A program made the translations under genes and the position numbers. From Myxococcales bacterium UBA1238 (lineage in GTDB: Bacteria; Myxococcota_A; Bradymonadia; UBA7976; UBA1532), in the NCBI GenBank assembly GCA_002309015.1, contig DBWM01000010.1, positions 62,501 to 126,500 of the forward strand: DNA of 64,000 nt. The letters are read 5' to 3'. Of this stretch, positions 28,345-51,476 are shown in pieces (the first letter of the stretch is position 1; each line of letters opens with the position of its first letter). The notes below the pieces were generated by a model that worked only from the letters and a program-made list of their open reading frames with translations, made no database searches and was not told where the DNA came from.

Positions 28345-30159
28345 TTAGGCGTCCCGGTTCTCGGGTTCGGGGGGCTGGATCAGCGCGATGTTCGCCTCGA
28401 TGAGCTGCTGGGGGTTGGCCACCGAGGGGGCACCGGTCATGAGGCAGGACGCAGAGGTCGTCTTGGGGAAGGCGATCACGTCGCGGATGTTGTCGGTTCC
28501 GGTGAGGAGCATCATCAAGCGATCCATACCGATGGCCAGGCCGCCGTGCGGAGGTGTGCCGTAGGTGAGGGCATCGAGGAGGAACCCAAAGCGGGTACGG
28601 GACTCCTCTTCGGTGAGGCCCAGGAGCTTAAAGACGCGCTTCTGCACCGATTGATCGTGGATACGGATCGACCCACCACCGAGTTCATAGCCGTTGAGGA
28701 CGACGTCGTAGGCCTGTGCGAGCACAGATCCAGGGTCACTTTCGAGGCGATCCAGGTCGTCGGGACGGGGTGAGGTGAACGGGTGGTGCATAGCGAACCA
28801 TCGACCGGCTTCCTGATCATATTCGAACATGGGGAAGTCGGTGACCCACAGGAACGCATACTTGCTGTTGTCGATCAGCCCCAGATCGCGACCGAGTTGA
28901 AGACGGAGGGCGCCCAGTGCGGCACAGGTGGTCGTGAAGTTGTCGGCCACAATAAAGGCAACGGAACCCGGTTTGACGCCCAGCTTGGCGGTGAGGGTCG
29001 CATGCTCCGCATCCGAGATGAACTTGCCGAAGGGTGCCTGCCAGCTGCCATCGTCCTTGACCTTCAACCAGGCCATACCCTTGGCGCCATACAGCTTGCA
29101 AAGGCTGGTGAGCTTGTCGAGGCGGCCACGCCCAAAGTCGCCCTTGGAGGCTTCCTCGGGGGAGAGAACGATCGCCTTGATGACGCCTCCATTGTTCGCC
29201 GTATCGTGGAAGACCGAGAACCCGGACGACTTGCCTTCTTCTGTGAGGTCAACAAATTCCAGGCCGAAGCGAACATCGGGTTTGTCGGAGCCGTACCTGT
29301 TCATCGCGTCGTGCCAGGTGATATGCGGGAACTTGGCGGGGATATCTACGCCCTTGGCTTCCTTGAACACCGCACCGAGCATATGCTCGACCACATCCTG
29401 GATGATCTCGGGTGTGGTGAACGACATCTCCATGTCTATCTGGGTGAACTCGGGTTGGCGATCGGCGCGGAGATCTTCGTCGCGGAAGCAGTGACAGATC
29501 TGGAAGTAACGGTCGAAGCCAGACACCATGAGCAGCTGCTTGAACAGCTGGGGGCTTTGTGGGAGGGCGTAGAAGCAGCCGGGGTGGATCCGGCTGGGCA
29601 CCAGGTAATCGCGGGCACCTTCGGGGCTGGTGTTGGCGAGCACGGGGGTCTCGATCTCGAGGAACCCACGTTCACTGAGGGAGCGGCGGACGATCTGGTT
29701 GACCTGGGAGCGGAGGATCAGCTTTTGCTGCAAGGGGGCACGCCGCAGATCCAGGAAGCGATAGCGCAGCTTGAGCTCTTCTGCGGTGTCGATGTCGTCT
29801 CTGATGTGGAAGGGCGGCAACTGTGCGGCATTGAAGATTTGAATCTGTTTGACGAGCACCTCGATCTCGCCCGTCGGCATGTTCGGGTTCCGGTTCTCAC
29901 CCCGGTCCTCCACCACGCCGCGAACCGCGACCACATACTCGTTGCGCACCTGGGATCCGATCCCGAAGGCCTCGGGTTCGGCATTCTGGTCGAACTTGAG
30001 CTGGGTCAGGCCGTAGCGGTCACGCAGTACGACAAAGATGCAGGCGCCCATATCGCGGCGGTTCTGCACCCATCCCATCAACACGACTTCCTGGCCGATG
30101 TGAGCGGCCCGCAGTTCCCCACAGTTGTGGGTCCTCTGTAACTCGCGTAGAAATTCCAT
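28345..30159 (-). CDS. aspS: Aspartate--tRNA ligase (class II)
   Basis: 604 aa. N-terminal OB fold (ELRAAHIGQEVVLMGWVQNRRDMG), class-II motifs FRDEDLRADRQPEFTQIDMEMSF and GGGSIRIHD. Confidence 0.93.
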   Translation of the reverse strand: MEFLRELQRTHNCGELRAAHIGQEVVLMGWVQNRRDMGACIFVVLRDRYGLTQLKFDQNAEPEAFGIGSQVRNEYVVAVRGVVEDRGENRNPNMPTGEIEVLVKQIQIFNAAQLPPFHIRDDIDTAEELKLRYRFLDLRRAPLQQKLILRSQVNQIVRRSLSERGFLEIETPVLANTSPEGARDYLVPSRIHPGCFYALPQSPQLFKQLLMVSGFDRYFQICHCFRDEDLRADRQPEFTQIDMEMSFTTPEIIQDVVEHMLGAVFKEAKGVDIPAKFPHITWHDAMNRYGSDKPDVRFGLEFVDLTEEGKSSGFSVFHDTANNGGVIKAIVLSPEEASKGDFGRGRLDKLTSLCKLYGAKGMAWLKVKDDGSWQAPFGKFISDAEHATLTAKLGVKPGSVAFIVADNFTTTCAALGALRLQLGRDLGLIDNSKYAFLWVTDFPMFEYDQEAGRWFAMHHPFTSPRPDDLDRLESDPGSVLAQAYDVVLNGYELGGGSIRIHDQSVQKRVFKLLGLTEEESRTRFGFLLDALTYGTPPHGGLAIGMDRLMMLLTGTDNIRDVIAFPKTTSASCLMTGAPSVANPQQLIEANIALIQPPEPENRDA

Positions 30160-36181: not shown

Positions 36182-39100
36182 ATGTCCAACATCAAGCGAA
36201 TTTTATGGCCCATGCTCCTTTTGGTGGGCGCGTTGGGTTGCGATGACGACGATAACAACGATCCTTTAGATATGGGATCCTCTGATGGGACTGTAGAAGG
36301 GGATTCGGGCCAACAAGGCGGCTGGCATGCCTCGACAGACGGCTCCACAAGCGACGGCTCTTTGGACGACGGCTCTTTGGACGACGGCTCTCAAAGTGAT
36401 GGTTCTCCGGAAGACGGCTCCACAAGCGATGGTTCCCCGGAAGATGGCTCTCAAAGCGATGGTTCCCCGGAAGATGGCTCCACAAGCGATGGCTCCCAAA
36501 GCGATGGTTCCACAAGCGATGGCTCCCCGGAAGACGGCTCGATTCACGTGCCCAGATGCGGCGACGGCATCATCGACGACGGCGATGACTCCCAACCGAA
36601 TCACAGCAGCAAGGATCTTGGGGAAGAATGTGATGACGGCAATCGCATCAATGGCGACGGCTGCAACTATACATGCAAACTGGAACCCGAAGATCCGCTC
36701 ATTTATGTGAAACCTGCTCAGGATAACTGCCAGGGTGCTTTTGATCTGCCTTTCGATCGCACAAAGAAGAATGTGTCGGTCTTATATGGCAACGAAGAAG
36801 GTGAGTCTCACTGGTTTAAGTTTAAACTTGAAGAACCCGCCACCGTCATGATTCACACCACTGCGCCTGAAGTGGTCGATCTGACCGCGCCTTCAGCTTC
36901 TGATGCGGCGGATGCCGGTTCTGTGGATGATTTGCTCTTTTGCTACGGTGATACGCTCTTACAACTCTATTCGGGCGCCTATTGCACCACAGTGGAAGCT
37001 GAAAACGATGACCGCGGGATGACGGGCGACGTTGAAAACAAATGCTCCGCAATTTACAAAAGCCTCAATAAGGGGGTTTGGCATATTAAAGCCTCTGCTC
37101 ACGGAGCGACCACCGATGCTGCGGGCAATCCTCAGAAGAACCTGCTGATGGTTCAAATCATCGATCCTGTGGAAGAGGGCGGTGATTGCAGCGCAGACCG
37201 GCCTTTCCCCATCCCCTGCGCTTTCAACGCTTATTGCGACAAAGCGACCAAACAATGTAAAAACAATAAATGCGGCGATTTCGTGATTGCGGGCGATGAG
37301 CAATGCGATGACGGTTCAGAGCAGGGTATTTTGGATGCAGATACAGGCAGCTATTATGGTTGCCATGGTTGCCGCATCAACCCCATTCCGGAAGGCAAGC
37401 CCTGCAAAGATCTGGATTATTCCTGCGGGGTGACTCCTGATGGAGTGAACCTGGTTTGCGATGCAGCGAAGGATAAATGCATACGAAAAAGCTGCGGCGA
37501 CCGAATGGTTTCTGCAGGGGAACAATGCGACGACGGCAATCAGATTGCGACCGATGGCTGCCATGAATGTCAGTTTACGCCTTATAATGGCACAGAGACG
37601 GGCTCTGCTCATCCATTCCAATTGAATTTGTCGGCAGATGGACATGCGGAAGTCGTTTTTTCGCTCGATTGGCCGAACGAAGAAGACTGGTTTAAGTTCG
37701 AAGTCCCTGAAACCGGTCTGTATACGATTTACACTATGTCTTTAAATGAGAAAGACTGTGCGGGTGATACCGAGCTGTTTCTCTATAATGCAGGCAAAGG
37801 ACAGATCTCTTACAACGATAACGGCGGCAACCACGGTAAATGCTCCGAGATCAAGTCTGTGCTCTTAACGCCCGGCCTGTATTATGTCAGCGTGCGCGAC
37901 TATTTTGGAAAGCTGATCCTCGAAGGCGACTGGCTGGTGATTCAAAAAGACAAGGCCCTGGAAAAGGGAGACAGCTGCTCGACCGACCCCCGCAGTCCTG
38001 CCTGCAATTACAATTTATGGTGCAGCGAAACGACCCATAAATGTGTTGAAAACACGTGCGGTGACTTTCACGTGGCTGGCGATGAAGAATGCGATGACGG
38101 CGCTCAGGATGAAGATCCCGAGGATGGTTGCAACGCCTGCAAGATGACCGGCATCCCTGTTGGCAAGAGTTGCATCGTCAATGGTCCGATTGAATGTGTA
38201 TTCAATGCCTATTGCGGCGAAAGTGGCATCTGCGTTGAACATGGTTGCGGCGATGACCGTTTGGGGCCTCTTGAAGATTGCGATTTCAGCATCAGCGGCA
38301 CTGTCAGATGCAATGAGCAATGTGTGACCGACGATGTGACCGCACGCTTTAATGCGACTGTTCGACCCGATGGCCGTATCGATGCCCTCTATCCGCGCGG
38401 TGGCCACAATGACTTTGAAATGACGCTCGATCAGGATGCCTATGTTACGCTCGATACGGGTGATCCCTCTTGCTCAGCTGATACGGTGATGACCCTGTCG
38501 AAGATCGATCAAGGCCGCATTTTAATTGCAGAAAATGATGATAAACCGGGCAGTACCTGTTCGCGCATCGAGGTCTTTCTGGAAGCAGGGGTGTACCGCA
38601 TTTGGGTGCGTAACTATTCGGAATATCTATCAAATCCGGGCTATGAATTCGTGTATCACGCGAAAACTCTGGCGGCTGCGGGCGCTTCCTGCACGAGCAA
38701 TGACAACTGCCTTTCGGCCGATAACGCTTGTTGCGAATCGGGTTATTACTGCAGGAATCTGGTTTGCAGACAACATACCTGCGGTGACGGTGTGATTTCA
38801 TCTGTTCCCAATGACGAAAGAAAGATCGAGGAATGCGATGACGGTCAGAGTGAAGCACATGATGTTGAGACCGATGGCTGCTATCACTGCAAGCTGAGAC
38901 CCATTCCCGATGATTATCCCTGCGTGGCTGACAGTATTTATTCCTGTGAAGCTGAATCCTATTGCGATGAAGGCGCTGGGAAATGCAAACCCCATGTTTG
39001 TGGCGATGGCATTGTGGGAGGAGTGAGTGAACAATGTGACAATGGGCAGAATACGGCGGACGATGATCTGAGCGATGGCTGTGCGAGCTGTGTCTTCCAG

Positions 39101-41458
39101 CCTTACAAAGGAGATCAGGTTTCATCCACAGCTTATGCGCTTACGTTCGACGAAAATGACTTCGCGCGCGTGGTTTTCACGACCGATATTCCCGGTGAGG
39201 TCGATCATTTTTCGTTTGAGATCACTGAAACGACGAATGTGCTCATTTACACAGAAGGTCTCTATAAGAATGTGGAAGGGAGCCGTTATCGTCAGAGTCC
39301 TTACAGCAAGGATAACGGCAATTGCAGCGGTGATACAGTCCTCGAGCTCTATCGGGACGGTGATTTTGATTACCTGGGCAGCAACGACAACGTCAGCCTC
39401 TTTAGGGAGACCTTAAATTACTGTTCTCGCCTGGGCGAAGATAATTTCCTGCCGATGGCCAAGTTGCCGGCGGGTAAATACCGCATTGATGTGTATCAGG
39501 CTGACACCGATATCGTGGAACGGATGGGAAACTGGCTGGTTGTGCGTAAGATTCACAAACTGGAGCCAGGAGATTTATGCATGCGCGACGATGAAGATCA
39601 GCCTTGCCCTTATGGCTATGCCTGTAATGGCTCTTGTATGGCAGTGAGATGCGGCGATGGCGTGGTGAGCCAAGAACTAGGAGAAGAATGCGAGCCTCCA
39701 AACAGCGCGACTTGTTCGGATACCTGCCACATCAAACCCCGGGCGACCATCAAACATACGTCCTCTGAAGATGTAGACAGCATCACCCTGATTCCTGGGA
39801 CCGATACATATGTCACATCGGGAAGTGTCAGTAGCATAGTATCCATCGAAGGTGGTCATAAAGTGTTCATCAATGCCATCTCGGGCGCAGCTGATGATGA
39901 TCAGATCTATTACAATCTGTCGCTGGCAGAGGAGCGCTATGTGGTCATCAAATTGGGACGCAAGGATCCGAGCAATAGTGAGCAACCCACATGTGCATTT
40001 AATAGTGAGATCGATGGCAGCTTTATCATTTCTCAATTGAAAGGCGAACCACCGGCTCAGGGTTACTTTGAATACCAGGAAGTCGATGTTTATGTAGATG
40101 CTTGCGAGACGTTTAGGGGTCATTTGCCGGCAGGAGAATGGCGCATTAATGTCCGAAATGTGGCAAACGATGAATTACCCGCGTTCAGCGATTTCACGCT
40201 GCTGGTGGTGATTGGGCAGGAGTTGACGCCTGATCAATCTTGTGAAGATAAAGATGCGAGCGATAAAATCATCGATACCGAGGCGATCCCTTGCGCCGTA
40301 ACCGAAGGTAAGAGCTATTTCTGTGGCAGTAACTCTCACAAATGCGTAGTAGACTGGTGCGGTAGTGGTTATCAGGGCTTGGCAGAAGAATGCGATTATG
40401 GAGACGCGAATGGTAAAGAAGGCAGCAGCTGTTCTTCCACTTGTACATACCGCTATTCCGGGAACGTCTTTACGGCGTCCGGAGTTTCATCACAGACAGG
40501 GAATGTAGAGGCGAAGGGCGTTTATGAGTATTGGAAGCTGTCATTGACGGGGCCTGCGCTCGTTTCCATGGAAACAGTCACAAACGATTGTTCTGCATAT
40601 GCAGTGGGTGACACCTACATGCATCTCTATAGTGCGGCTCTGGGGCAGATCGACGACAAGGAAAGTCAGCCAACGTTTGATGATATCATATATAATGTAA
40701 ATTTCTGCTCCCGCCTGGATAATCTTTTGCTCGATGCGGGAGACTACGCGGTTGCTGTATCAGGTTATAAGACGGGCAGTTATCTCTTAAAGATAAAAAT
40801 ACATTACTTTATTGACAATGATGTGGCATGTGATCGCAAATTCTTCCATGATGTTTACACGGGCGATATCTGTAATCCAAATCAACATCTCATTTGCTGG
40901 ATGCAGACTAACGAAAGTGCAGGGATTTGTTCGCAGTATGGCAGCGATCAACTTTATGATGAGGTCGATACCAGCGAGCAGGACAATGATTCACTGGCAG
41001 CGCTCGAATCGAGTACGCAGACCGTTGCTTCGGTCAATTCAGGCTTTAAGGCTTACATGAACGGTGCTGCCGATACGGATGTCTTTAAGCTCGAATTGGC
41101 GGATTCGACCGAACTTTGGGTTTACACCAGCGATGGTGGGCAGGGTTGTCCCGGCGATACGATCTTAAGGCATAATGGCTCCGGGGCTCAAAATGACGAT
41201 GTGCCCGGTACCAGCAATCGATGCAGCCAGTTTGTGGAGACCTTTGGTGCGGGCACCCATGCCTTTACAGTCACCAACGGTGCCGATCGCGCGCTCAATG
41301 CCAAGTTTGATTACGTGATCCGCTTTAAAGAGACGCTGCCTGAGAACGCTCCCTGCGATCCCGATATGGTCTCAGCCTTCCCGCAAAACCGGTGCCAGAG
41401 TGGGACGACCTGTATCGACAGCGACAAAGACGGTAACGGTATCTGCGTAGCGAACTGA
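36182..41458 (+). CDS. Giant lipoprotein. It has a DGS-hexapeptide repeat region and ~7 modules of Myxococcales-type Cys-rich repeats (TIGR02232-like) alternating with PPC-like (pre-peptidase C-terminal) beta-sandwich domains.
   Basis: 1758 aa. Lipobox LLLVGALGCDDD. The DGSxxD hexapeptide is repeated ~11x (nt 36338..36541). Repeated CGDGxxxxxEECDDGNxxxGDGCxxxC units. Repeated PPC-like units (DWFKFEV...YTIYTMS...DTELFLYNAGKGQISYNDNGG...LTPGLYYVSVRDY). Confidence 0.7.
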   Translation: MSNIKRILWPMLLLVGALGCDDDDNNDPLDMGSSDGTVEGDSGQQGGWHASTDGSTSDGSLDDGSLDDGSQSDGSPEDGSTSDGSPEDGSQSDGSPEDGSTSDGSQSDGSTSDGSPEDGSIHVPRCGDGIIDDGDDSQPNHSSKDLGEECDDGNRINGDGCNYTCKLEPEDPLIYVKPAQDNCQGAFDLPFDRTKKNVSVLYGNEEGESHWFKFKLEEPATVMIHTTAPEVVDLTAPSASDAADAGSVDDLLFCYGDTLLQLYSGAYCTTVEAENDDRGMTGDVENKCSAIYKSLNKGVWHIKASAHGATTDAAGNPQKNLLMVQIIDPVEEGGDCSADRPFPIPCAFNAYCDKATKQCKNNKCGDFVIAGDEQCDDGSEQGILDADTGSYYGCHGCRINPIPEGKPCKDLDYSCGVTPDGVNLVCDAAKDKCIRKSCGDRMVSAGEQCDDGNQIATDGCHECQFTPYNGTETGSAHPFQLNLSADGHAEVVFSLDWPNEEDWFKFEVPETGLYTIYTMSLNEKDCAGDTELFLYNAGKGQISYNDNGGNHGKCSEIKSVLLTPGLYYVSVRDYFGKLILEGDWLVIQKDKALEKGDSCSTDPRSPACNYNLWCSETTHKCVENTCGDFHVAGDEECDDGAQDEDPEDGCNACKMTGIPVGKSCIVNGPIECVFNAYCGESGICVEHGCGDDRLGPLEDCDFSISGTVRCNEQCVTDDVTARFNATVRPDGRIDALYPRGGHNDFEMTLDQDAYVTLDTGDPSCSADTVMTLSKIDQGRILIAENDDKPGSTCSRIEVFLEAGVYRIWVRNYSEYLSNPGYEFVYHAKTLAAAGASCTSNDNCLSADNACCESGYYCRNLVCRQHTCGDGVISSVPNDERKIEECDDGQSEAHDVETDGCYHCKLRPIPDDYPCVADSIYSCEAESYCDEGAGKCKPHVCGDGIVGGVSEQCDNGQNTADDDLSDGCASCVFQPYKGDQVSSTAYALTFDENDFARVVFTTDIPGEVDHFSFEITETTNVLIYTEGLYKNVEGSRYRQSPYSKDNGNCSGDTVLELYRDGDFDYLGSNDNVSLFRETLNYCSRLGEDNFLPMAKLPAGKYRIDVYQADTDIVERMGNWLVVRKIHKLEPGDLCMRDDEDQPCPYGYACNGSCMAVRCGDGVVSQELGEECEPPNSATCSDTCHIKPRATIKHTSSEDVDSITLIPGTDTYVTSGSVSSIVSIEGGHKVFINAISGAADDDQIYYNLSLAEERYVVIKLGRKDPSNSEQPTCAFNSEIDGSFIISQLKGEPPAQGYFEYQEVDVYVDACETFRGHLPAGEWRINVRNVANDELPAFSDFTLLVVIGQELTPDQSCEDKDASDKIIDTEAIPCAVTEGKSYFCGSNSHKCVVDWCGSGYQGLAEECDYGDANGKEGSSCSSTCTYRYSGNVFTASGVSSQTGNVEAKGVYEYWKLSLTGPALVSMETVTNDCSAYAVGDTYMHLYSAALGQIDDKESQPTFDDIIYNVNFCSRLDNLLLDAGDYAVAVSGYKTGSYLLKIKIHYFIDNDVACDRKFFHDVYTGDICNPNQHLICWMQTNESAGICSQYGSDQLYDEVDTSEQDNDSLAALESSTQTVASVNSGFKAYMNGAADTDVFKLELADSTELWVYTSDGGQGCPGDTILRHNGSGAQNDDVPGTSNRCSQFVETFGAGTHAFTVTNGADRALNAKFDYVIRFKETLPENAPCDPDMVSAFPQNRCQSGTTCIDSDKDGNGICVAN

Positions 41459-42504: not shown

Positions 42505-42963
42505 TTAATGGGCTTCAATGTGAATGGCTGCGTCTTTGTCTTCGGTGGAGCTGTCTTCAGTTTGTTCGGTGCTTTCTGCATCCTGGTCGGGTACGGAGGC
42601 GTCGCCTGAGGCTTGTTGTGAGTCGTCGCGTTTATTGGATTTTTGGCCCACGAAACAAGCAGCGCCCTTCCATTTGGTGTGGTAAAGCTCGCAGGCGGCA
42701 TTGCAGCTGTCCTTGGCTGAAATGCATCTGCCTACGCTTTCACATTCACCGTCCTCGCCGCATACAAGCTCACAATGTCCATAGCGTACAGTTTGTCCGT
42801 CTGCGCAATCGCATTCCATGTCGCATTCGATATTGGAAACACAGGTGAGTTTGGCGGGTTCCTGTCCGTCGCATTTATCTTCTTCGCAACCCCAGAATCC
42901 GAAGCCCAGGGCGAGGAGCGCCAGGGCGGCAAAGGGGGATCGTGAGTTCAATCGGGTCAGCAT
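42505..42963 (-). CDS. Small Cys-rich secreted lipoprotein with an acidic C-terminal tail
   Basis: The ORF track runs to 43083, but the plausible start is the Met at 42963 (MLTRLNSRSPFAALALLALGFGFWGCEEDKC), giving a signal peptide plus lipobox. 14 Cys in ~80 aa. Confidence 0.5.
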   Translation of the reverse strand: MLTRLNSRSPFAALALLALGFGFWGCEEDKCDGQEPAKLTCVSNIECDMECDCADGQTVRYGHCELVCGEDGECESVGRCISAKDSCNAACELYHTKWKGAACFVGQKSNKRDDSQQASGDASVPDQDAESTEQTEDSSTEDKDAAIHIEAH

Positions 42964-43068
42964 CGTTTCAAATGGGCCTCCATCTTGAGTCAATTGATTT
43001 TTCTTATACCAGTCGCGCGCGGTATCGCCTATAGAGCGGCAGCATTTTCTTTCAGAAAAGAGGGCTCG

Positions 43069-43365
43069 ATGTTTCATTGGCAAGGGATTCTGGTGGGGTT
43101 AGGCTGCTTTTTGATGATCGGCCTGCTGCATCCGGTGGTGATTTGGGGCGAATATTACTTTGGAAAGCGCATCTGGCCGATTTTTTTGCTGCTGGGCATC
43201 GGCTGCGTGATCTTCTCCGGCTTGACTTCAAGCCTCGTCGCGTCGAGTCTGATTGCGGTCTTGGGCTTTTGCTTTTTTTGGTGCATTCTAGAGCTCTTTC
43301 ATCAGGAACGGCGTGTGCAGAAGGGCTGGTTTCCCAAAAATCCGAAGCGAACGTACAAAGAGTGA
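43069..43365 (+). CDS. Small 3-TM membrane protein (DUF4491-like)
   Basis: MFHWQGILVGLGCFLMIGLLHPVVIWGEYYFGKRIWPIFLLLGIGCVIF... The internal Met is chosen over the ORF-track start at 42985. Confidence 0.45.
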   Translation: MFHWQGILVGLGCFLMIGLLHPVVIWGEYYFGKRIWPIFLLLGIGCVIFSGLTSSLVASSLIAVLGFCFFWCILELFHQERRVQKGWFPKNPKRTYKE

Positions 43366-43388: not shown

Positions 43389-44933
43389 GTGAAAAAGGCG
43401 TTTTATCTTGCAGGACTTGCGGCTTTGGCTTTGGGCTGCTCGACTCATGAAGATGCGGCAAAGCCTTTAAAATCACATACGCAAGCGATCTATCACGGTT
43501 CGCGCACGCCGACGGTGGTCTCGATGACGGACGGACAACTGCTGGCTCTGGGGTGGCTGCACAGCCTGTCGCGACCTGTCAGCTCCTATTGTTCGGGCAC
43601 CATCATTGCGCCCCGCCTGGTGGCGACTGCAAAGCATTGCTTTGACGAAAACTCCCGCGCGGTGAGCATCGGATTCAGCGTGGGCCAATTGCGCGAGGAA
43701 CCCGTACATACCTTTACGCTCAATACTTTTTTGCTTCACGAAACCCGCGATGTGGCGCTTTTGGTGCTCGCGGAAGATGCGACCGAGGTTGTGCCCGGGC
43801 TTACGCCGATCCCGTTTAACCGAACCGCGATGACGAGGGCCGATGAAGGGCGCATGGTGCAGGCTGCAGGTTATGGCCGGACCGACAACGGCGCTACGGG
43901 TCGATTCTTTGCCGAGGTCAAGCTCACCGGGGTGACGGACGAGATGATCATCGTAGACGGCATGGGGCGTCAGGGCATCTGCAGCGGCGATTCCGGGGGA
44001 CCTGCGCTCCTCATGCAGTCGGGAGAATTGGCGGTTGTGGCTGTCGAGACCGAGGGCAGCAGCACCTGCGTGGGTCAGGACAGCATGACGCGCCTAGATC
44101 AGGTGGCCGAATGGATCGACTCCGTGGATCCCGAAAATGTGATACTGACCGACTGCGAGGCGATCGGTCCCAAAGGCCGTTGCGTGGGCAATGTGGCTTT
44201 ATGGTGCGAAACCACTGGCGTGATGCCCTATCGTTGCGCCGACTGGGGACAAATCTGCGGCTACGACGAGCGAAAGGATCGCTATTACTGCATCGATAAA
44301 CCCAACAACTGCGGCGATGTGCCCGAAGAAGGCCGTTGCAGCGAGACGGGCGTCGAATGGTGCGAAGATGGCGAGGTGATGACCGAAAACTGCGCGGAGA
44401 GCGAGCTGGTCTGCCATTTCGACGAGCAACTGGGCTATTACTGCGCCATGCCTTGCAGCGAAGAAGAATCCGTTTGTGAAGATCTGATTTGGCGCAGCTG
44501 CAAAGAGGGCTTTTGGACTTCGCAGGATTGCGCCGCGAGCGAAAAACTCTGCCTGGCCGACATGGGTTGCGTCACAGAAGAAGAATATGAAGATGCGGCT
44601 CTTGCGGACGCCCTGGTGCCGGATGCGGAGTTGGAGGACGCCGATTCAGAGGACGCCGATTCAGAAGACGCCGAGTTGCTGGATGCAGATTTGGAAGACG
44701 CGGAACCTGTGGAAGATGCTGAGCTTTTGCAGGATGCGGCGAAGCAGGATGCAGCGGTTGTCCCCGATGCGGCGAAACAGGATGCAGCGGTTGTCCCCGA
44801 TGCGTCAACGGATTCGGATTCCGGCGGATCCGATGGATGCAGCGCTTTACCGCAATCTGGCGGCCCTGCATGGCTTTGGGCTGGTTTAGGTCTTTTGGCG
44901 ATCGCTCCAGGAAGGCGTTTGCGAAAAAAATGA
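43389..44933 (+). CDS. Lipoprotein trypsin-like serine protease (S1 family) with C-terminal 6-Cys repeat modules, an acidic repeat region and a MYXO-CTERM-like tail
   Basis: 514 aa. Lipobox LALGCSTHED. Catalytic triad motifs TAKHC / DVALLVL / GICSGDSGGPAL. Four ~40-aa modules (C..G.C.GNVALWCETTG...CADWGQICGYDE..DRYYC). C-terminus GCSALPQSGGPAWLWAGLGLLAIAPGRRLRKK. Confidence 0.8.
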   Translation: MKKAFYLAGLAALALGCSTHEDAAKPLKSHTQAIYHGSRTPTVVSMTDGQLLALGWLHSLSRPVSSYCSGTIIAPRLVATAKHCFDENSRAVSIGFSVGQLREEPVHTFTLNTFLLHETRDVALLVLAEDATEVVPGLTPIPFNRTAMTRADEGRMVQAAGYGRTDNGATGRFFAEVKLTGVTDEMIIVDGMGRQGICSGDSGGPALLMQSGELAVVAVETEGSSTCVGQDSMTRLDQVAEWIDSVDPENVILTDCEAIGPKGRCVGNVALWCETTGVMPYRCADWGQICGYDERKDRYYCIDKPNNCGDVPEEGRCSETGVEWCEDGEVMTENCAESELVCHFDEQLGYYCAMPCSEEESVCEDLIWRSCKEGFWTSQDCAASEKLCLADMGCVTEEEYEDAALADALVPDAELEDADSEDADSEDAELLDADLEDAEPVEDAELLQDAAKQDAAVVPDAAKQDAAVVPDASTDSDSGGSDGCSALPQSGGPAWLWAGLGLLAIAPGRRLRKK

Positions 44934-44951
44934 TGCAGGAGAAGATCTGAA

Positions 44952-46049
44952 ATGTTGCGCAATGCCTTGGTTTTATGGAGTGCGTTTTCACTTGTGGCCT
45001 GCCAGGCACCGGAAGATGCGCCGCAAGTGGCGACTGTAAATCGAGCGATCGTCAATGGATCCCGAACGCATCACAGCGAGATTGTGCCGTTGAGCGAGGG
45101 GCAGCTGAAAGCCTTTGGATATCTTCACAAATCGGGCCAGGAAACGCGCATGTTTTGTACGGGTACCCTCATCGGACCGCGTCTGGTGGTGACCGCCCGG
45201 CATTGCGTGCATGACGATGAGCATTGTGTGGACAAAGAGGAGAGGGTCACCTGTACCGATGGTGATTTAAAGCCGCAGCAGGTTCAGTTTTCGATCGGTC
45301 AATTGAACGCAGAACCGGATCACACGTTTCCGGTATCAAAGATTCACTACCGTACAGATGCAGATCTCGCGGTCTTAATCCTTTCGCAGGACGCCACAGT
45401 GGTGGTGCCCGGACTGACGCCGCTCTCCTGGAATCGCAACGCTTCGCTTTCGGAGTTTGTGGAGCAGAAGATCGAGGTGGTGGGTTATGGCAATAACGCG
45501 CCCAACGGCGGCAAGGATTATTTTAATGGCCGCTTTTTTGCGGATTTAAAGTTTGCCAAACTCGACGATCGCTATGTCTGGGTGGACGGTGAGGGTGAGA
45601 AGGGGCTTTGCGATGGCGATTCCGGAGGGCCCGCATTGCTGACGATCGATGGGGAAGCGGTTGTGGTCGCGGTGGAATCTTTGGGCGAGGAAACCTGCCT
45701 GGGACTGGATAAGATGACTCGCCTCGACGGGTTTGCCGAATGGATTGAAGACCTCGATTCCGACGTTGAGACTTCGGATTGCGGGGGGGTGGATTACGCG
45801 GGCTATTGCGAAGACAGCAGGGTCATTTGGTGTGAAGACGGTCAGCTTTGGCATTACGACTGCGACAGTGATGGCCTGAGATGCGGCTACGATGGGGAGG
45901 GATACAACTGCCTCGATGAGGGGAGTGAATGGCTTTGGGGTGAAGGTGAGGATGGCTGCGGAATGATGCCGCATCGCGGTGGGATCAGTCTGTTTTGGCT
46001 TTGTGTCTTGGGCGTTTCCGCCGTAAGAATCCATCGTCGCAAACGGTGA
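44952..46049 (+). CDS. Lipoprotein trypsin-like serine protease (S1), paralog 2, with Cys modules and a MYXO-CTERM-like tail
   Basis: 365 aa. Lipobox SLVACQAPED. TARHCVHDDEHC / DADLAVLIL / CDGDSGGPALL. C-terminus DGCGMMPHRGGISLFWLCVLGVSAVRIHRRKR. Confidence 0.8.
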   Translation: MLRNALVLWSAFSLVACQAPEDAPQVATVNRAIVNGSRTHHSEIVPLSEGQLKAFGYLHKSGQETRMFCTGTLIGPRLVVTARHCVHDDEHCVDKEERVTCTDGDLKPQQVQFSIGQLNAEPDHTFPVSKIHYRTDADLAVLILSQDATVVVPGLTPLSWNRNASLSEFVEQKIEVVGYGNNAPNGGKDYFNGRFFADLKFAKLDDRYVWVDGEGEKGLCDGDSGGPALLTIDGEAVVVAVESLGEETCLGLDKMTRLDGFAEWIEDLDSDVETSDCGGVDYAGYCEDSRVIWCEDGQLWHYDCDSDGLRCGYDGEGYNCLDEGSEWLWGEGEDGCGMMPHRGGISLFWLCVLGVSAVRIHRRKR

Positions 46050-46283
46050 TTCGACGCGCTCTTCGGATTCATCGGGGCAATCTTTCGCCCTTTGACGGTC
46101 TTCACCGCATTTTTTTGAAATCCACCCGATTTATCTCTTCTTTCACCCTCAAAACGGTTGTACGTTAACGGCGTTTGGTGCCTAACGGGCGATCGTGTTT
46201 CACTTTTGGGTCGCCAGTTTGACTTGAGAAGCCGATCTTTCATTGGGCAATGACCTTTGGCTTTACCTTCATAAGGAGATGAC

Positions 46284-47474
46284 ATGCGAATTTCTCACGT
46301 GGCTGCAGCGCTCGCCTGCGTTTCGCTTTGTGCCTGCACCGAAGAGGAGAGGGAACAAATCCGTTCTTCCGACGAATCTTTCGAGTGGGTCCAAAGCCCC
46401 ATCGTCAACGGATCCCGCACACATGACTCCAGCATCGTCGATTTAACCGACGGGCAATTGAAGGCTTTCGGGTATCTTCACCGCTACGGCTCCAATCGAA
46501 CCATGTTCTGTTCGGGGACCATCATCGCTCCGCGCGTTGTGGCGACCGCCCGTCACTGCGTGCACGACGAGGATTCACCGTCCAGCGATACACGCCCGGG
46601 TGACATCCAGTTCTCCATCGGCATGTTCAATTCCAGCCCGGAATACACCTTTAACGTCTCTGAAATTCACTACAACCAGAATGTGGACGCCGCCATCCTG
46701 GTGTTGTCCGAGGATGCCACGGCGGCAGTGGACGGTCTGACGCCCATTCCCATGAACCGATCCGGGGCGCTTTCGGGCTTCGTAGGCAAGAAGGTGCAGG
46801 TTGCAGGGTATGGGAACACCGTGGGCAACGGTGGATCGGGTTATTACAAGGGGCGTTATTTCGCCGAAGTGCGTTTGGCTTCGGTCGATAACACCATGAT
46901 CAATGTTGACGGTGAAGGGCTTGAAGGCATTTGCGACGGGGATTCCGGCGGTCCCGCACTTTTGACCGTCAATGACCAGGTGGTGGTGGTCGCGGTCGAA
47001 TCGAACGGCGCCATGTCCTGCGTCGACGTGGATCATATGACGCGCCTCGATCGAATTGCCTCCTGGATCGACAGCTTCGATCCCGACGCGGATTCGAATG
47101 AGAACCCCTGTGGTAATGTGTCGTACGTCGGTTACTGCGATGGAAACGTTGCCGTGTGGTGCAACACCGAAGATGGCGTTTCCGCGATCGCACGCCGTGA
47201 CTGCGCTGCTGAAAACAAAGTTTGCGGCTATAGCACCTCGTATGGCTACTATTGCATCGATGGTAACGGGGGATCTACCGGCGGTAACGGTGGCTCTGGC
47301 AGCGGTGGATCGGGTGGATCCTCCGGAGTGACAGGCACCAACGGATCGGGTGGAAGCTCTGTCCCCACCAATACTACGCGCGGTTGCTCTTCGATGCCCG
47401 GTCAGTCCCAGGGTATCTGGGGCTTCTTGCCGGTGATTGGCCTCCTGGCCCTCCGTCGTCGTCGCAACGCGTAA
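46284..47474 (+). CDS. Lipoprotein trypsin-like serine protease (S1), paralog 3, with Cys modules, a Gly/Ser linker and a MYXO-CTERM-like tail
   Basis: 396 aa. VSLCACTEEE. TARHCVHDED / VDAAILVL / CDGDSGGPALL. C-terminus RGCSSMPGQSQGIWGFLPVIGLLALRRRRNA. Confidence 0.8.
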   Translation: MRISHVAAALACVSLCACTEEEREQIRSSDESFEWVQSPIVNGSRTHDSSIVDLTDGQLKAFGYLHRYGSNRTMFCSGTIIAPRVVATARHCVHDEDSPSSDTRPGDIQFSIGMFNSSPEYTFNVSEIHYNQNVDAAILVLSEDATAAVDGLTPIPMNRSGALSGFVGKKVQVAGYGNTVGNGGSGYYKGRYFAEVRLASVDNTMINVDGEGLEGICDGDSGGPALLTVNDQVVVVAVESNGAMSCVDVDHMTRLDRIASWIDSFDPDADSNENPCGNVSYVGYCDGNVAVWCNTEDGVSAIARRDCAAENKVCGYSTSYGYYCIDGNGGSTGGNGGSGSGGSGGSSGVTGTNGSGGSSVPTNTTRGCSSMPGQSQGIWGFLPVIGLLALRRRRNA

Positions 47475-47680
47475 CGCTTTCTCCATCTATCCCCCCGGTA
47501 TCACCCTCCTTCCCTTTCGCTCAACACCGATCACCCCCTGTAAGCAACGCGTTGCCCGGAATGTTTGGGGCATGTTCCCGGCCAGTAGTCCCTTTTTGCG
47601 GTGCAAATCAATGCCCTTTTTCTGGGTGTATTTTACTGTAACCTCTTTGTATTTTTTTTTGAATCACAAGTGAGAGCATC

Positions 47681-49660
47681 ATGCGTAAAGCTGTTTTTCT
47701 GTTTGCCGCCCTGTGTCTGGCCGCCTGCCAGGATGAAGAAATCGTCGATCGAGGGGGGATGACGTCGCAAGCCGACTTCAATCTCTCAATGTCCGAGAGG
47801 CTGTCCGTCGATGTAAGCCGTAAAAGCGCCATCAACCCGGGGGATGCGGAGCTTTTGCGCAAGAGCACCCACCGCACCAAGGCGTCCTGTGGCGACGTCA
47901 CGACTGAAGGTCGATGCAATGGCACCACGGCAGAATGGTGCTCGGATGGTGAACTCAAATCATTCGACTGCGGCAACGTCGATATGGGTTGCGGCTACGT
48001 CAACAATGACCTGGGGTATTACTGCACCTGCGACGTATCGACTTACAATGCGGGGTGCATCGGCAGTTTCGCCGTTTGGTGCGAGACGCCTTCTTCGGGG
48101 GGAAACCCAACGCTTGCAATGTATAACTGCTCTGACAATGACCTCACCTGCGGAATCAGTGATGGCTCATTAACCTGCGTAGAATCCTCGGGAGAAGGTT
48201 GCGGCAACGTCACCTACGAGGGGTATTGCGACGGTGATGTGGCTTATTGGTGCAAATATGCGGGGACCGCATCGGAAACCATTGCGCATTACGACTGCTC
48301 CCAGGAGGGTAAAACCTGCGGGCTCACTTCAGATGGCGATTATTACTGCGTAGAACCCTCGGGAGGTGGTTGCGGCAGCGTCACCTACGAGGGGTATTGC
48401 GACGGTAATGTTTTGTATTGGTGCGATAACCCGGGGACCGCATCGGAAACCATTGCGCGTCAGGATTGCTCCGCGAGTGATAAAGTCTGCGGAGATGATG
48501 GTGATGGCAATTATTACTGCAAAGAATCCTCGGGTGGCAATTGCGGCAACATCACATCCCAGGGGACATGCGACGGCGACGTATTGACGTATTGCAATGA
48601 CGGCGAATTAAAGACGATCAACTGCCGTTCTGCCTATGCTGTCGCGGGGAGGCAGACGGAATACACCTGTGATTGGTCCAGCAACTACAACAGTTACTCT
48701 TGCGTCATCGATGATGATACCGGAGCCTCCTGCGGTACAGTCAGTTCTGCTGGACGCTGTGCTGGCAATAACCTCGAATATTGTTACCAGAATACTCTGC
48801 ATCGCCTTTATTGCGCCGAGTTCGGCTACGTTTGCGGCGAGGATGAGGTCAATGGCGGCTATAACTGCATCGAATCCAGCTCTGTAACCGATGGTGGTAC
48901 CGATGGTGGATCTGCGGATTCAGGATTGATCGATAGCGGTACCGACGGTGGATCTACAGATTCAGGCGTAAACGACAGCGGTACCGACGGAGGATCTGCG
49001 GATTCAGGATTGATCGATAGCGGTACCGACGGTGGATCTGCGGATTCAGGCGTCAATCAGGACAGCTCCATCGGTGAGGACAGCGGAAGCAGTGATGGAG
49101 GCAGCGTGGTCACCGATGGTGGAACGTCGGATTCCGGTGGTGGCGACCCTTGTAACGGGGTGTCTTATGAAGGTAAATGCAGTGAAGATGGTCGATCCTA
49201 CAGTTATTGCGAGAATGGTCACCTTTACACCAATCCTTGCCCGGAGGGTAAGATCTGCGGCTTCGTGCAGACCAGCGGCATGTACACCTGTGTAAAGGCT
49301 CAAACCACAGATGCAGGCGAGCCTCAGGACAGTGGAACTGTAACGGATGCAAGTGGTGAAACCACCGATTCCGGCAGTACAACTGTGGATGCAAGCGATG
49401 ATGCAAGCTCATCCCAGGGGGATGCCAGCGAATCCAACGATTCAGGCAACGTAAGCACCCAGGATGCAGCTTCTTCCGATGCCTCCAATGGAAACAATCA
49501 CGGCGGTAATGGCGGATCCAATCAGGGCAGATTGCGCGATGCCGACGTAGATGACTCCTCTACAGTTTCTGCAGCGGGCTGTCACTCCCTGCCTGGGCAT
49601 TCATCCACGCCGTTTTGGGCGCTCATACCCCTGTTGGCATTCTTGCGCCGCCGCCGTTAA
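47681..49660 (+). CDS. Protease-less paralog. Lipoprotein with ~9 tandem 6-Cys modules (CGNVTYEGYCDG.V.YWC...GTASETIA..DCS...K.CG...DG.YYC), Gly/Ser/Asp repeats and a MYXO-CTERM-like tail.
   Basis: 659 aa. Lipobox LCLAACQDEE. The module is the same one found at the C-termini of the three proteases. A 60-nt near-perfect coding tandem repeat lies at ~48893..49062. C-terminus AAGCHSLPGHSSTPFWALIPLLAFLRRRR. Confidence 0.7.
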   Translation: MRKAVFLFAALCLAACQDEEIVDRGGMTSQADFNLSMSERLSVDVSRKSAINPGDAELLRKSTHRTKASCGDVTTEGRCNGTTAEWCSDGELKSFDCGNVDMGCGYVNNDLGYYCTCDVSTYNAGCIGSFAVWCETPSSGGNPTLAMYNCSDNDLTCGISDGSLTCVESSGEGCGNVTYEGYCDGDVAYWCKYAGTASETIAHYDCSQEGKTCGLTSDGDYYCVEPSGGGCGSVTYEGYCDGNVLYWCDNPGTASETIARQDCSASDKVCGDDGDGNYYCKESSGGNCGNITSQGTCDGDVLTYCNDGELKTINCRSAYAVAGRQTEYTCDWSSNYNSYSCVIDDDTGASCGTVSSAGRCAGNNLEYCYQNTLHRLYCAEFGYVCGEDEVNGGYNCIESSSVTDGGTDGGSADSGLIDSGTDGGSTDSGVNDSGTDGGSADSGLIDSGTDGGSADSGVNQDSSIGEDSGSSDGGSVVTDGGTSDSGGGDPCNGVSYEGKCSEDGRSYSYCENGHLYTNPCPEGKICGFVQTSGMYTCVKAQTTDAGEPQDSGTVTDASGETTDSGSTTVDASDDASSSQGDASESNDSGNVSTQDAASSDASNGNNHGGNGGSNQGRLRDADVDDSSTVSAAGCHSLPGHSSTPFWALIPLLAFLRRRR

Positions 49661-49776: not shown

Positions 49777-50853
49777 ATGTCGCGTAAAAAGAAGAACGCC
49801 GATCGGTCAGAGAATCGCGGACGTTCTGCAAAGCTGCCTCCGGAGGCACCGAGCGATGATCTTTTTTGGGTGGAAGAGGATGAGCAGGAGGAGGAGACCC
49901 GGCCTCCCAAAGAGGAGCCGCCTCTGTTTGACGCGATCCCCTGGAACGACGATCACGCGGGACCTCTGTGCATCGCCATCGCGGGTGGAAAAGGGGGATC
50001 GGGGCGCAGTCTCCTGACGGCCAACATCGGGCTCTATCTTTCGAGGCTCGGTCGCGACGTGGTGGTGGCCGATTTGGATCCCGGCGGTGCCAATCTCCAC
50101 ACGTATCTGGGGCTTCAGCCGCTTTTGCCGAGCGCCGGTGCCCTGTTGCGCGATCCCGGGCCGCCTTTGGTGGAATCGATCCCCGGGATGACGCTGCGCC
50201 TTTGCCGATCGCCGATGCCGGGTTGTTCGGGGGCCAATGATCCGCTGCGCCTGGCCACGATGGAGACCGCCAAGGGGTTAGGGGCCGACGTGCTTTTGAT
50301 GGATTTGGGCACCCAGCTCGATCCTCTCACGCTGGAGGCGTTTTTGCAGGCCGATGCGGGGGTTGTGGTGGTGGTGCCCGAACCTGCGAGCTTTGAGCGC
50401 GCCTATGTGTTTTTGCGGGCGGCGCTCTATCGAAGGCTGCATCAGGGGGATGACGAACCTGCGGTTGTGGCGCGGGCGCTGCTTGCGGCGGATCAGATGG
50501 GTCAGCTCGATTCTCCGGCGGATCTGATCGCGACGCTGTCGGGCGTTCACGCCAATGCGGCCGAAGCTTTAAGGGCGCGGGTGCTCGCGTTTAACCCCAA
50601 GATTCTGATGAACCGCTGCCGTTCGAGAACCGAACGCGAGATGGAGGCGGGCATGGTGTCGGCGTTAAAACGGCGTTTTGGCATGCTGGCCGAGGGGTTA
50701 GGCGGCGTGGCTCTGGACGATACGGCGATGGAAGCGGCGCGCAGAAGGCGGAATGTGATGCTTGAATATCCGGGATCGAGCCTGGGCAGCGACATTGAGC
50801 GCGTGGCCAGGCGTCTGCTCGCTTCAACCTTTGTGAGGGACGCGCGCGTATGA
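49777..50853 (+). CDS. ParA/MinD-family P-loop ATPase with a charged N-terminal extension and an atypical Walker A (Lys->Arg)
   Basis: 358 aa. CIAIAGGKGGSGRSLLTANIGLYLSRLGRDVVVADLDPGG. The deviant Walker A 'KGG..GK[ST]' reads KGGSGRS here, so the signature Lys is kept and the P-loop Lys is replaced by Arg. Confidence 0.65.
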   Translation: MSRKKKNADRSENRGRSAKLPPEAPSDDLFWVEEDEQEEETRPPKEEPPLFDAIPWNDDHAGPLCIAIAGGKGGSGRSLLTANIGLYLSRLGRDVVVADLDPGGANLHTYLGLQPLLPSAGALLRDPGPPLVESIPGMTLRLCRSPMPGCSGANDPLRLATMETAKGLGADVLLMDLGTQLDPLTLEAFLQADAGVVVVVPEPASFERAYVFLRAALYRRLHQGDDEPAVVARALLAADQMGQLDSPADLIATLSGVHANAAEALRARVLAFNPKILMNRCRSRTEREMEAGMVSALKRRFGMLAEGLGGVALDDTAMEAARRRRNVMLEYPGSSLGSDIERVARRLLASTFVRDARV

Positions 50854-51476
50854 CCGATCCCAAACAGATGAACCTCTATGCGGTCCTCGAAGTCGAACCC
50901 GGGGCCACCGACGACGAGATCCGCCGCGCGCACAAGCGCCTGATACAACTCTTCGATCCCGCAGGGATGGTGGTTTACGGGCTCTATCGTGAAAGCGATG
51001 CCAAACGGTTGCTGGAGCGATTAAAAGAAGCCTACGAGACGCTGATGGATCCCGAGAAGCGGCGCCTTTACGATTTAAACCTCTTCCCCAAGGGACATCC
51101 CAGCCTGCGGCGTGCGGACGAGCGCGTGGCGATGACACCTCCGAGGCGGATGGAGATCGTGGGCGATCCCTTTAAAGCCCTGAATCTTGGGGCTGAAGAC
51201 CTGTTGTCGGGGGATGCCTTAAGGCAACTGCGGGAACTCTGTGGGATCTCCCTGCAAGAGATAGCGGATCGCACCAAGATCAGCCTGTTTGCTCTGCGCA
51301 GCATCGAGAATGAGCAGTTCAGCGACCTGCCTGCGCCCGTCTACCTGACCGGGTTCTTAAAGCAAATCGCGCAGTTTCTGCATATCGATCCCGCGAGGCT
51401 GGTGCACGACTATATGGCGAGGCTCAGCGCCTGGCGCGCATCGGCGCTCCCCGAAGATGAACAGACGAAGGCTTGA
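50850..51476 (+). CDS. J-domain-like plus helix-turn-helix (RodZ/XRE-like) protein, translationally coupled to the upstream ParA-like gene
   Basis: 208 aa. Its start overlaps the upstream stop (ATGA). The N-terminus LYAVLEVEPGATDDEIRRAHKRLIQLFDP...LKEAYETLMDPEKRRLYD aligns to the DnaJ J-domain, but HPD is replaced by FDP. The C-terminus LRQLRELCGISLQEIADRTKISLFALRSIE is an HTH. Confidence 0.6.
   Translation: MTDPKQMNLYAVLEVEPGATDDEIRRAHKRLIQLFDPAGMVVYGLYRESDAKRLLERLKEAYETLMDPEKRRLYDLNLFPKGHPSLRRADERVAMTPPRRMEIVGDPFKALNLGAEDLLSGDALRQLRELCGISLQEIADRTKISLFALRSIENEQFSDLPAPVYLTGFLKQIAQFLHIDPARLVHDYMARLSAWRASALPEDEQTKA

Follow-up and report, generated by a model that had tools for sequence, protein, structure and literature searches.

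A widespread six-cysteine domain shared by three predicted S1A proteases and a protease-less paralog in a tandem array with MYXO-CTERM-like tails

The S1 protease VesB of Vibrio cholerae carries a GlyGly-CTERM signal that is processed by rhombosortase, a rhomboid, and its accessory domain is Ig-like rather than a 6-Cys knot; to our knowledge, VesB has no lipobox. The combination of a protease with a MYXO-CTERM signal is already known as well. In the model proposed for this signal, the Cys residue is lipidated, the helix is removed by the myxosortase MrtX and the protein is brought to the surface by the T2SS (PMC11980579). The list of M. xanthus proteins with a MYXO-CTERM signal counts trypsin-like serine proteases, a MurNAc-LAA amidase and enzymes of the thermolysin type among its members, and their N-termini are given as signal peptides with nothing more specific stated (PMC11980579). 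As published, the canonical signal frequently has a GCGC motif and its helix is free of charged and Pro residues. The curators of the corresponding model, TIGR03901, describe it as short, divergent, lineage-sensitive and in need of manual review, and they report that Bradymonadales have abundant MYXO-CTERM proteins together with their own myxosortase, MrtP.

Within the 64,000-nucleotide stretch of DNA analyzed here (hereafter the window), four co-directional open reading frames on the + strand form an array at positions 43389-49660, comprising three predicted S1A proteases (P1-P3) and one protease-less paralog (P4). P1 (43389-44933, + strand, 514 aa) begins with a signal peptide and lipobox at residues 1-17 (Cys17) and a short pro-region (18-33), followed by the S1A protease (34-245), three modules with six Cys residues (256-303, 308-354 and 356-396, the last degenerate), an acidic D/E/A repeat linker (397-482) and a Cys/hydrophobic/basic tail (483-514). 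The P1 modules are encoded at 44154-44297, 44310-44450 and 44454-44576 of the + strand (overall span 44154-44576) and were detected with domain E-values from 2e-20 to 1.7e-12 by a profile derived from the window copies. P2 (44952-46049, + strand, 365 aa) has its lipobox Cys at position 17, a pro-region (18-32), an S1A protease (33-267) with an additional Cys-containing insertion beyond the catalytic His, a single module (277-322, nucleotides 45780-45917) and a divergent tail (335-365). Similarly, P3 (46284-47474, + strand, 396 aa) consists of a lipobox with Cys18, a pro-region (19-39), an S1A protease that begins with IVNG (40-264), one module (276-326, nucleotides 47109-47261), a Gly/Ser linker (327-366) and a tail (367-396). 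The last gene, P4 (47681-49660, + strand, 659 aa), encodes a lipobox with Cys16, an N-region of 53 aa, six tandem modules (70-398, nucleotides 47888-48874), Gly/Ser/Asp repeats that correspond to a 42-bp DNA repeat (399-488), a seventh module (491-539, nucleotides 49151-49297), a Ser/Asp-rich linker and a tail (633-659). Since the genes on either side are housekeeping genes, the locus is a small paralog array and not a dedicated island; the predatory or defensive secretome proposed in the preliminary description is plausible. The nearest named relatives of the AspRS are Bradymonadia, Myxococcales and Myxococcota MAGs, homolog loci that bear the module support this lineage as well, and the host is best explained, judging from its sequence, as an uncultured, deeply branching Myxococcota/Bradymonadia-like bacterium.

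The three proteases matched Pfam Trypsin (PF00089) with 68.9, 62.9 and 68.6 bits for P1, P2 and P3 respectively, at a cutoff of 20.6, and each contains the triad motifs TA[KR]HC, D[VLA]A[LVI]L[VI]L and GDSGGP. The catalytic His, Asp and Ser (H91, D135 and S221 in P3 numbering) are invariant in an alignment of 13 homologs, and so are the equivalents of the Cys42-58 and Cys191-220 pairs as well as I40 and G43 (P3 numbering) of the mature start, which reads IVNG or IYHG. The Asp of GDSGGP, which has the role of Asp194 in accepting the zymogen Ile16, is likewise conserved, and the domains have the double beta-barrel fold of chymotrypsin. On this sequence evidence P1-P3 are catalytically intact peptidases of family S1A (the chymotrypsin family), in agreement with the preliminary description of this DNA, which had listed three intact trypsin-like proteases. 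That description had also denied the fourth gene a protease domain, and P4 scanned as a whole protein indeed matched no Pfam family, Trypsin included. Trypsin-type specificity (Asp189) was considered for P1-P3 and rejected, as alignment with elastase places a Gly six positions ahead of the catalytic Ser (S1-pocket stretches EGICDGDS, QGICSGDS and KGLCDGDS). Because of this Gly at the Asp189 position, cleavage after Lys or Arg is probably not to be expected.

All four proteins start with a lipobox-type sequence, as had been claimed, namely ALGC in P1, LVAC in P2, LCAC in P3 and LAAC in P4 by pattern reading. The last three fit [LVI][ASTVIC][GAS]-C and the A-L-G-C of P1 fits a looser pattern only; the Cys is invariant in the alignment of 13 sequences. 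The motif follows a positively charged n-region and a hydrophobic h-region, as in bacterial lipoproteins cut by signal peptidase II. P1-P4 may thus be lipidated at this N-terminal residue, whereas the MYXO-CTERM proteins of M. xanthus are described simply as having signal peptides (PMC11980579). We found no precedent in the literature for a protein that has a lipobox at its N-terminus and a lipid anchor at its C-terminus. At the opposite end, all four tails read GC-x2-[LM]-P followed by a hydrophobic stretch and an R/K-rich end, and among the other open reading frames of the window that reach 100 aa or more, none ends in a comparable tail. The pattern noted earlier therefore stands in all four, except that two residues and not one separate GC from [LM]P. 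Attribution of the tails to MYXO-CTERM held in part. TIGR03901 was the best match for P1, P3 and P4 (20.4, 24.3 and 15.5 bits, cutoff 20) when the tails were scanned alone, so that two of the four reach the cutoff; the P2 tail had no NCBIfam match at E<=10, and in whole-protein scans only P3 appeared, at 17.9 bits and below the same cutoff of 20. A canonical MYXO-CTERM helix and motif can be rejected for these tails, as Pro lies inside the hydrophobic stretch of P1 (IAPG), P3 (FLPVIG) and P4 (LIPLL) and none has GCGC, with P2 reading GCG; in these respects they differ from the GCGC-type logo. On the other hand, the tails of close homologs score up to 28.6 bits, and the same layout of lipobox, protease, module and tail recurs in homologs from other Myxococcota MAGs. 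No myxosortase or CPBP-family gene was found in the 64-kb window. Overall, P1-P3 resemble the M. xanthus MrtX substrates in uniting an N-terminal export signal, a hydrolase and a C-terminal Cys, hydrophobic helix and Arg cluster (PMC11980579), and they differ from VesB in both the sorting signal and the sorting enzyme.

The new element of the locus is the module itself, a real, widespread and previously undescribed domain family. Its 12 window copies have six invariant Cys residues in about 47 aa (range 41-56), somewhat more than the 40 or so first estimated. Counts were also lower than the one to four copies per protease and approximately nine in the fourth gene that had been put forward: P1 has three, P2 and P3 one each, and P4 seven, six of them in tandem and one beyond the Gly/Ser/Asp repeat. 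The profile built from these copies found no module in window open reading frames other than P1-P4, consistent with a module common to all four genes, the module-only paralog among them. Searched against the database, the same profile retrieved 2391 representatives (50% identity) at E<=1e-3 and 791 at E<=1e-10, with 1 to 20 copies per carrier. The named carriers are Myxococcota MAGs, and the carrier proteins looked up by name are annotated as 'hypothetical protein' or by their catalytic domain only. HMM searches of Pfam, NCBIfam and PDB sequences assigned the module, which the preliminary description could not place from sequence alone, to no family, with the exception of one CBM_19 match in P4. 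The AF2 model of the module has a pLDDT of 95.1 and its secondary-structure pattern is repeated in the full-length P3 model; a compact, five-stranded domain with three disulfides, approximately 47 aa in size, is the best explanation of these predictions. Over 613 modules, G8, G12 and D27 are conserved, together with aromatic residues at positions 17 (89%), 37 (66%) and 44 (73%).

Two known types of Cys-rich domain were compared with the module. The seventh module of P4 matched CBM_19 with 20.8 bits (cutoff 20.1) and CBM_14 with 14.1 bits (cutoff 22.1), but neither family (PF03427 and PF01607, respectively) was matched by the remaining 11 of the 12 window modules or by modules from other proteins (17 in A2 and 97 in A5). 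Foldseek detected nothing between the module and the CBM14/19 chitin-binding modules, the Cys spacing of peritrophin-A (CBM14) differs, and CBM14/19 are mostly eukaryotic whereas the named module carriers are bacterial. Membership in CBM14 or CBM19 by HMM score was rejected, given that a single module passes a cutoff and all others tested gave nothing; the likeness of fold and HMM is weak. The second candidate was the myxobacterial cysteine-rich acidic repeat (TIGR02232 / DUF4215), present in a 1758-aa neighbour protein 2 kb upstream in the window. Like the module it is a Cys-rich tandem repeat of secreted Myxococcota proteins, but it has 4 Cys in about 30-38 aa against 6 Cys in about 47 aa. 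P1-P4 gave no HMM match to TIGR02232 / DUF4215, an hhalign comparison of one repeat with the other yielded a probability of 0.4%, and their identity was likewise rejected.

We then consider the company the module keeps. Across the family it is mostly found outside protease contexts, and many module-only proteins occur in other genomic contexts. In 77 carriers that have large regions outside the module, the associated domains were Trypsin (35), M4 (5), Amidase_2 (4), M23 (4), S8 (2), M64 (2), SLT (2) and VanY (1), the usual position of the module being C-terminal to secreted hydrolases. For example, P0061 consists of SLT, Amidase_2 and three modules, and peptidoglycan hydrolases such as P0061, P0012 and P0086 have no non-catalytic domain other than the modules, which lie at the C-terminal side, the usual position of cell-wall-binding domains. 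These architectures lend indirect support to the ligand- or carbohydrate-binding repeat suggested in the preliminary description, a plausible role. The enzyme classes listed for M. xanthus MYXO-CTERM proteins (PMC11980579) are those that bear the module elsewhere, and the domain abbreviations in the Table S1 legend of that study do not include a 6-Cys module (PMC11980579).

With these observations in mind, we lean, at a little less than an even chance, toward P1-P3 being surface-displayed predatory or lytic enzymes that the module targets to substrate or cell wall, with P4 as a multivalent adhesin or lectin. The proteins would be exported by Sec and lipidated at the lipobox Cys. P1-P3 would then be S1A zymogens in which a pro-segment of 15-21 aa separates the lipid-bearing Cys from I-[VY]-[NH]-G, the equivalent of chymotrypsin Ile16-Gly19, and an activating cut before the Ile would free the enzyme from its N-terminal lipid. 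Provided that the variant tails are processed canonically, the mature enzyme would be kept on the cell by its MYXO-CTERM-type C-terminal signal. The module, flanked by the catalytic domain and by an extended linker predicted to be disordered, would keep its enzyme bound to the substrate, for which a polymer of the prey or of the cell envelope, for instance peptidoglycan or a different glycan, is the likeliest candidate, and the module-only P4 could act through the same module as a multivalent surface adhesin or lectin. A broader proposal seems doubtful: that the module founds a family of bacterial carbohydrate- or cell-wall-binding targeting domains, possibly a remote CBM14/19 branch, added to the lytic S1, M4, M23, M64, S8, amidase, SLT and VanY toolkit of predators, with a two-ended lipid tether at this locus whose N-terminal anchor is lost on activation and whose C-terminal anchor is kept.

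The same arrangement could be read without any ligand. A rigid, disulfide-stabilised spacer or stalk would project the catalytic domain and resist the producer's own proteases, P4 being a surface filler or headless stalk; we regard this as unlikely. It is consistent with the placement of the module between catalytic domain and anchor, with the copy number of 1 to 20, with the Cys-rich LDLa, Somatomedin_B and Dicty_CTDC domains that some carriers also have, and with sequence and fold searches that returned no convincing ligand-binding homolog. TraA, itself a MYXO-CTERM protein, has a stalk of Cys-rich repeats. However, the module forms the C-terminal end of 88 of the 152 top matches, with no anchor behind it, and a spacer would therefore have nothing to hold off, while in the window proteins the disordered linker already provides spacing. 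A spacer also leaves the strong conservation of G8, G12, D27 and the three aromatics unexplained, although in a domain of 47 aa the aromatics may just build the core.

Alternatively, the module could regulate or inhibit, quieting the tethered proteases on the producer, with P4 as a multi-headed inhibitor for self-protection. Known families of serine-protease inhibitors are small and disulfide-rich, as is the module, S1 domains are found in nearly half of the 77 carriers, and the module-only gene lies directly downstream of three protease genes. A weak Pfam match to the arthropod clip domain (E 0.035) points the same way, but it is one in 108 and at chance level, and no inhibitor family was matched. 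Fusion of the module to the mechanistically unrelated M4, M23, M64, Amidase_2, SLT and VanY enzymes, besides its occurrence in many module-only proteins, poorly fits a class-specific inhibitor, and this role appears very improbable. A further reading concerns the tails, which might be plain membrane anchors or substrates of other Cys-dependent sorting, leaving the proteins at the inner membrane or in the periplasm for envelope maintenance. The unmatched P2 tail, the P4 score under the cutoff, the whole-protein scans, the Pro residues that go against the published logo description and the window without a CPBP gene all speak for it. Nevertheless, no sorting model outscores MYXO-CTERM on three of the four tails, its scores are higher still in close homologs, its lineage sensitivity and the MrtP of Bradymonadales are on record, and a sortase missing from 64 kb tells little about a whole genome. 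We consider plain anchoring improbable.

Coming back to targeting by the module, what it would mean depends on the part that the module plays. Should it serve for spacing and nothing else, what remains is an ordinary array of surface-protease paralogs. A domain present in more than two thousand protein clusters has had no entry in Pfam, NCBIfam or the PDB. If both ends of the proteins are processed, lipobox and MYXO-CTERM together would make a surface zymogen that swaps its anchor upon activation. Finally, if prey envelopes are what the module targets, it would flag the secreted lytic enzymes of predatory Myxococcota and Bradymonadia in metagenomes, and protein engineering would gain a small binding scaffold stabilised by disulfides.

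The array consists of four neighbouring genes on the + strand, P1 (43389-44933, 514 aa), P2 (44952-46049, 365 aa), P3 (46284-47474, 396 aa) and P4 (47681-49660, 659 aa). The four-gene family of the preliminary description is real and was portrayed largely accurately: P1-P3 match the Pfam Trypsin family at 63-69 bits (cutoff 20.6), and all four proteins share a six-Cys module and a similar C-terminal tail. No Pfam family was matched by P4, the protease-less paralog. Six residues ahead of the catalytic Ser, at the base of the S1 pocket, P1-P3 have Gly instead of Asp; these S1A proteases are therefore probably not trypsin-like in specificity. The array's paralogs, 40-49% identical, are old. A comparable tandem pair is present at locus L010 of another Myxococcota MAG. 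Directly after its catalytic His, P2 carries an insertion (aa 91-113, window 45222-45290) with two additional Cys (C92 and C101), possibly an additional disulfide loop close to the active-site entrance; a similar insertion is found in homologs P0120 and P0155 and is absent from P1 and P3.

With a profile derived from the copies in the window we delimited 12 modules: seven are in P4, P2 and P3 have a single one each, and P1 has three, of which the last is degenerate. The numbers first reported, one to four per protease and about nine in P4, were thus both slight overcounts. Outside P1-P4, no profile match was obtained among all six-frame ORFs of the window. The six Cys of the module are invariant, and 613 copies from database proteins yield the consensus C-G-x-[VIL]-x-x-x-G-x-C-[DE]-G-x-x-x-x-[WYF]-C-x2-G-x-[LVI]-x3-D-C-x6-C-G-[WYF]-x(5-7)-[YF]-x-C, with G8 kept in 99% of the copies and three positions aromatic in 66-89%. 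The AlphaFold model of a single module (pLDDT 95.1) comprises one helical turn and five short strands, a secondary-structure pattern repeated in the full-length P3 model. P4 modules 3 and 4, which are 67% identical and coincide with a 171-bp DNA repeat (window 48175-48576, 2.4 copies, 79% matches), stem from a more recent duplication. The Gly/Ser/Asp linker of P4 is encoded by a 42-bp tandem repeat (window 48889-49050, 3.9 copies); the P4 ortholog P0001, 97% identical, is 14 aa (one linker unit) shorter, and linker copy number therefore varies between strains.

The preliminary description could assign the module to no known domain from sequence alone, and sequence and structure searches agree. 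P4 and the module regions of P1-P3 were unmatched in Pfam and NCBIfam even at E<=1, profile searches of PDB sequences with module alignments A1 and A5 gave nothing better than E=0.36, and Foldseek found no match in the PDB below E=1. Seemingly strong phmmer matches of module 7 to designed 'Cake' propeller proteins were rejected as artefacts, since their scores are sums of roughly 4-bit repeats, each with E >600. Kinship with the DUF4215/TIGR02232 Cys repeat of a neighbouring 1758-aa protein was likewise rejected (hhalign probability 0.4%). Scanned alone against Pfam, P4 module 7 reached 20.8 bits for CBM_19 (cutoff 20.1) and E=0.053 for CBM_14; neither family was found in the remaining 11 window modules or in the modules scanned from other proteins (17 of the 28 modules in alignment A2 and 97 of the 108 in A5). 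The CBM14/19 resemblance, limited to P4 module 7, is therefore a lead and not a sign of membership. When the literature was searched for this domain in Bradymonadales, only unrelated venom papers came up.

A word-indexed search with P4 matched just four proteins, among them two proteases, one with six modules and a similar tail and the other tailless with four modules, and a tailless ten-module protein, and the module seemed almost unique. An exhaustive profile search, covering 1.84 billion representatives, overturned this impression: 2391 proteins passed E<=1e-3 and 791 the stricter E<=1e-10. Among 152 carriers taken from the top matches of that search, the module forms the C-terminal end in 88, a Cys/hydrophobic/basic tail is present in 29 and GDSGGP in 33. 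Pfam scans of the 77 carriers with large non-module regions identified Trypsin as the most frequent partner (35/77), followed by M4 thermolysin and LDL-receptor class A (5 each), Amidase_2 and M23 (4 each), S8, M64, CAP, SLT and Somatomedin_B (2 each), and VanY, M10/M12 and others (1 each). For example, P0061, named "N-acetylmuramoyl-L-alanine amidase [Myxococcota bacterium]" at NCBI, combines SLT and Amidase_2 with three C-terminal modules. Similarly, modules accompany Amidase_2 in P0012 and P0086, VanY in P0055 and M64 in P0057/P0080. Further named carriers are each a "hypothetical protein" of Myxococcales or Proteobacteria MAGs. P0005 (locus L090, 3001-9144) is a 2047-aa lipobox protein with 20 modules and no further Pfam domain, which shows the module also making up giant module-only proteins; its gene adjoins a metallo-beta-lactamase-fold gene in a Lys/Asn-rich metagenomic organism of apparently lower G+C. 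Across a collection with one genome per species, in which the best match was 53% identical, module-bearing S1 homologs came from MAGs assigned to Myxococcota, Myxococcales, Nannocystaceae, Bradymonadia, Polyangiaceae and Sandaracinaceae and from three unclassified MAGs; module-less, more distant homologs came from many phyla. Because the genome ranking favours P3 relatives, these results set no bound on the range of the module family.

Each of the four proteins terminates in GC-x2-[LM]P followed, after about 5-6 residues, by a hydrophobic stretch and then a cluster of R/K; no comparable tail was found among the other window ORFs of >=100 aa. The MYXO-CTERM likeness proposed for these tails holds for the Cys/hydrophobic/basic layout in all four, but only the tails of P1 (20.4 bits) and P3 (24.3 bits), scanned alone, reached the 20-bit cutoff for TIGR03901, the MYXO-CTERM model. 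The P4 tail alone scored 15.5 bits and that of P2 gave no match; scanned as whole proteins, P3 scored 17.9 bits and P1, P2 and P4 were unmatched. Tails of close homologs reach up to 28.6 bits. The curators of TIGR03901 describe the model as short, divergent and lineage-sensitive, the canonical helix as free of Pro and charge and the GCGC motif as frequent; they also note that MYXO-CTERM proteins are abundant in Bradymonadales, which have their own myxosortase, MrtP. In contrast to the canonical form, the window tails contain Pro in the helix and lack GCGC, and we therefore call them a MYXO-CTERM-type variant rather than proven members. No CPBP-family (myxosortase) gene was found among the large ORFs of the 64-kb window, a result that bears little on the remainder of the genome. 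The N-termini are lipobox-like (ALGC in P1; LVAC, LCAC and LAAC in P2-P4), with the lipobox Cys kept in 13/13 aligned homologs.

GCA_016648615.1 and two assemblies from read archives carry near-identical genes. Among 5.8 billion clustered proteins, the one closest to the AspRS of the window (28345-30159, -) shares just 64% identity with it, which places the source in a deeply branching, poorly sampled lineage; the nearest named matches of this AspRS, at 60-61% identity, belong to MAGs of Bradymonadia, Myxococcales and Myxococcota. Flanking genes encode RecBCD, an H+-PPase, AspRS, an RluD-type synthase, a ParA-like ATPase, a Ser/Thr kinase and DUF2062 and DUF4491 membrane proteins. As for the secretome locus envisaged earlier, the flanks are housekeeping or unrelated, and the locus is a small array of paralogs rather than a dedicated island.

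Several neighbours merit description. About 2 kb upstream of the array (36182-41458, +), the 1758-aa lipobox protein carries 6-7 DUF4215/TIGR02232 myxobacterial Cys-rich acidic repeats, a PPC pre-peptidase C-terminal domain, DVUA0089-family regions and an N-terminal DGS repeat tract, without a C-terminal sorting tail. A small Cys-rich putative lipoprotein (42505-42963, -; LALGFGFWGC, many Cys, acidic C-terminus) had no significant Pfam or NCBIfam match; its ORF is listed as 42505-43083 with a TTG start overlapping the DUF4491 gene, an overlap avoided by an internal Met at ~42963. Directly 3' of the array (49777-51476, +), a ParA/MinD-like ATPase, extended N-terminally by a long charged stretch, and a protein with DnaJ and HTH_25 domains are encoded with overlapping stop and start codons, and the ParA-like gene likewise adjoins the P4 ortholog in GCA_016648615.1. 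A 159-aa protein of the SUKH-5 / SMI1-KNR4 family, whose members are often immunity proteins of polymorphic toxin systems, is encoded alone between a methyltransferase-like gene and AspRS (27403-27882, +). The gene for a 2158-aa secreted protein with PKD, K319L-like PKD and REJ domains (19783-26259, +) falls in the lowest G+C of the window (0.47-0.52 vs 0.55-0.62 elsewhere) and might be of foreign origin.

Upon activation of S1A zymogens, the new N-terminal Ile16 inserts beside Asp194. In P1-P3 a conserved I-[VY]-[NH]-G is situated 15-21 residues past the lipobox Cys, a position from which activation before the Ile would release the enzyme from its N-terminal lipid. The MYXO-CTERM model runs from Sec export through Cys lipidation and MrtX cleavage to T2SS transfer to the surface (PMC11980579); this route would keep the mature enzyme tethered by its C-terminus via a long flexible linker. 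MYXO-CTERM proteins of M. xanthus include trypsin-like proteases, a MurNAc-LAA amidase and thermolysin-type enzymes (PMC11980579), and the protease-plus-anchor combination is thus already known.

As for the module itself, it may be a spacer or stalk, and P4 may have an inhibitory role. We favour a role in targeting or binding because the module is attached to many secreted hydrolases of unrelated mechanism, takes the place of the usual cell-wall-binding domain in peptidoglycan hydrolases, is often terminal and multi-copy, forms module-only proteins and weakly resembles CBM14-type folds. Overall, neither the proteases nor the type of anchor is unusual for Myxococcota. What is new here is an undescribed yet widespread six-Cys domain family, together with the combination of a lipobox and a C-terminal Cys anchor.
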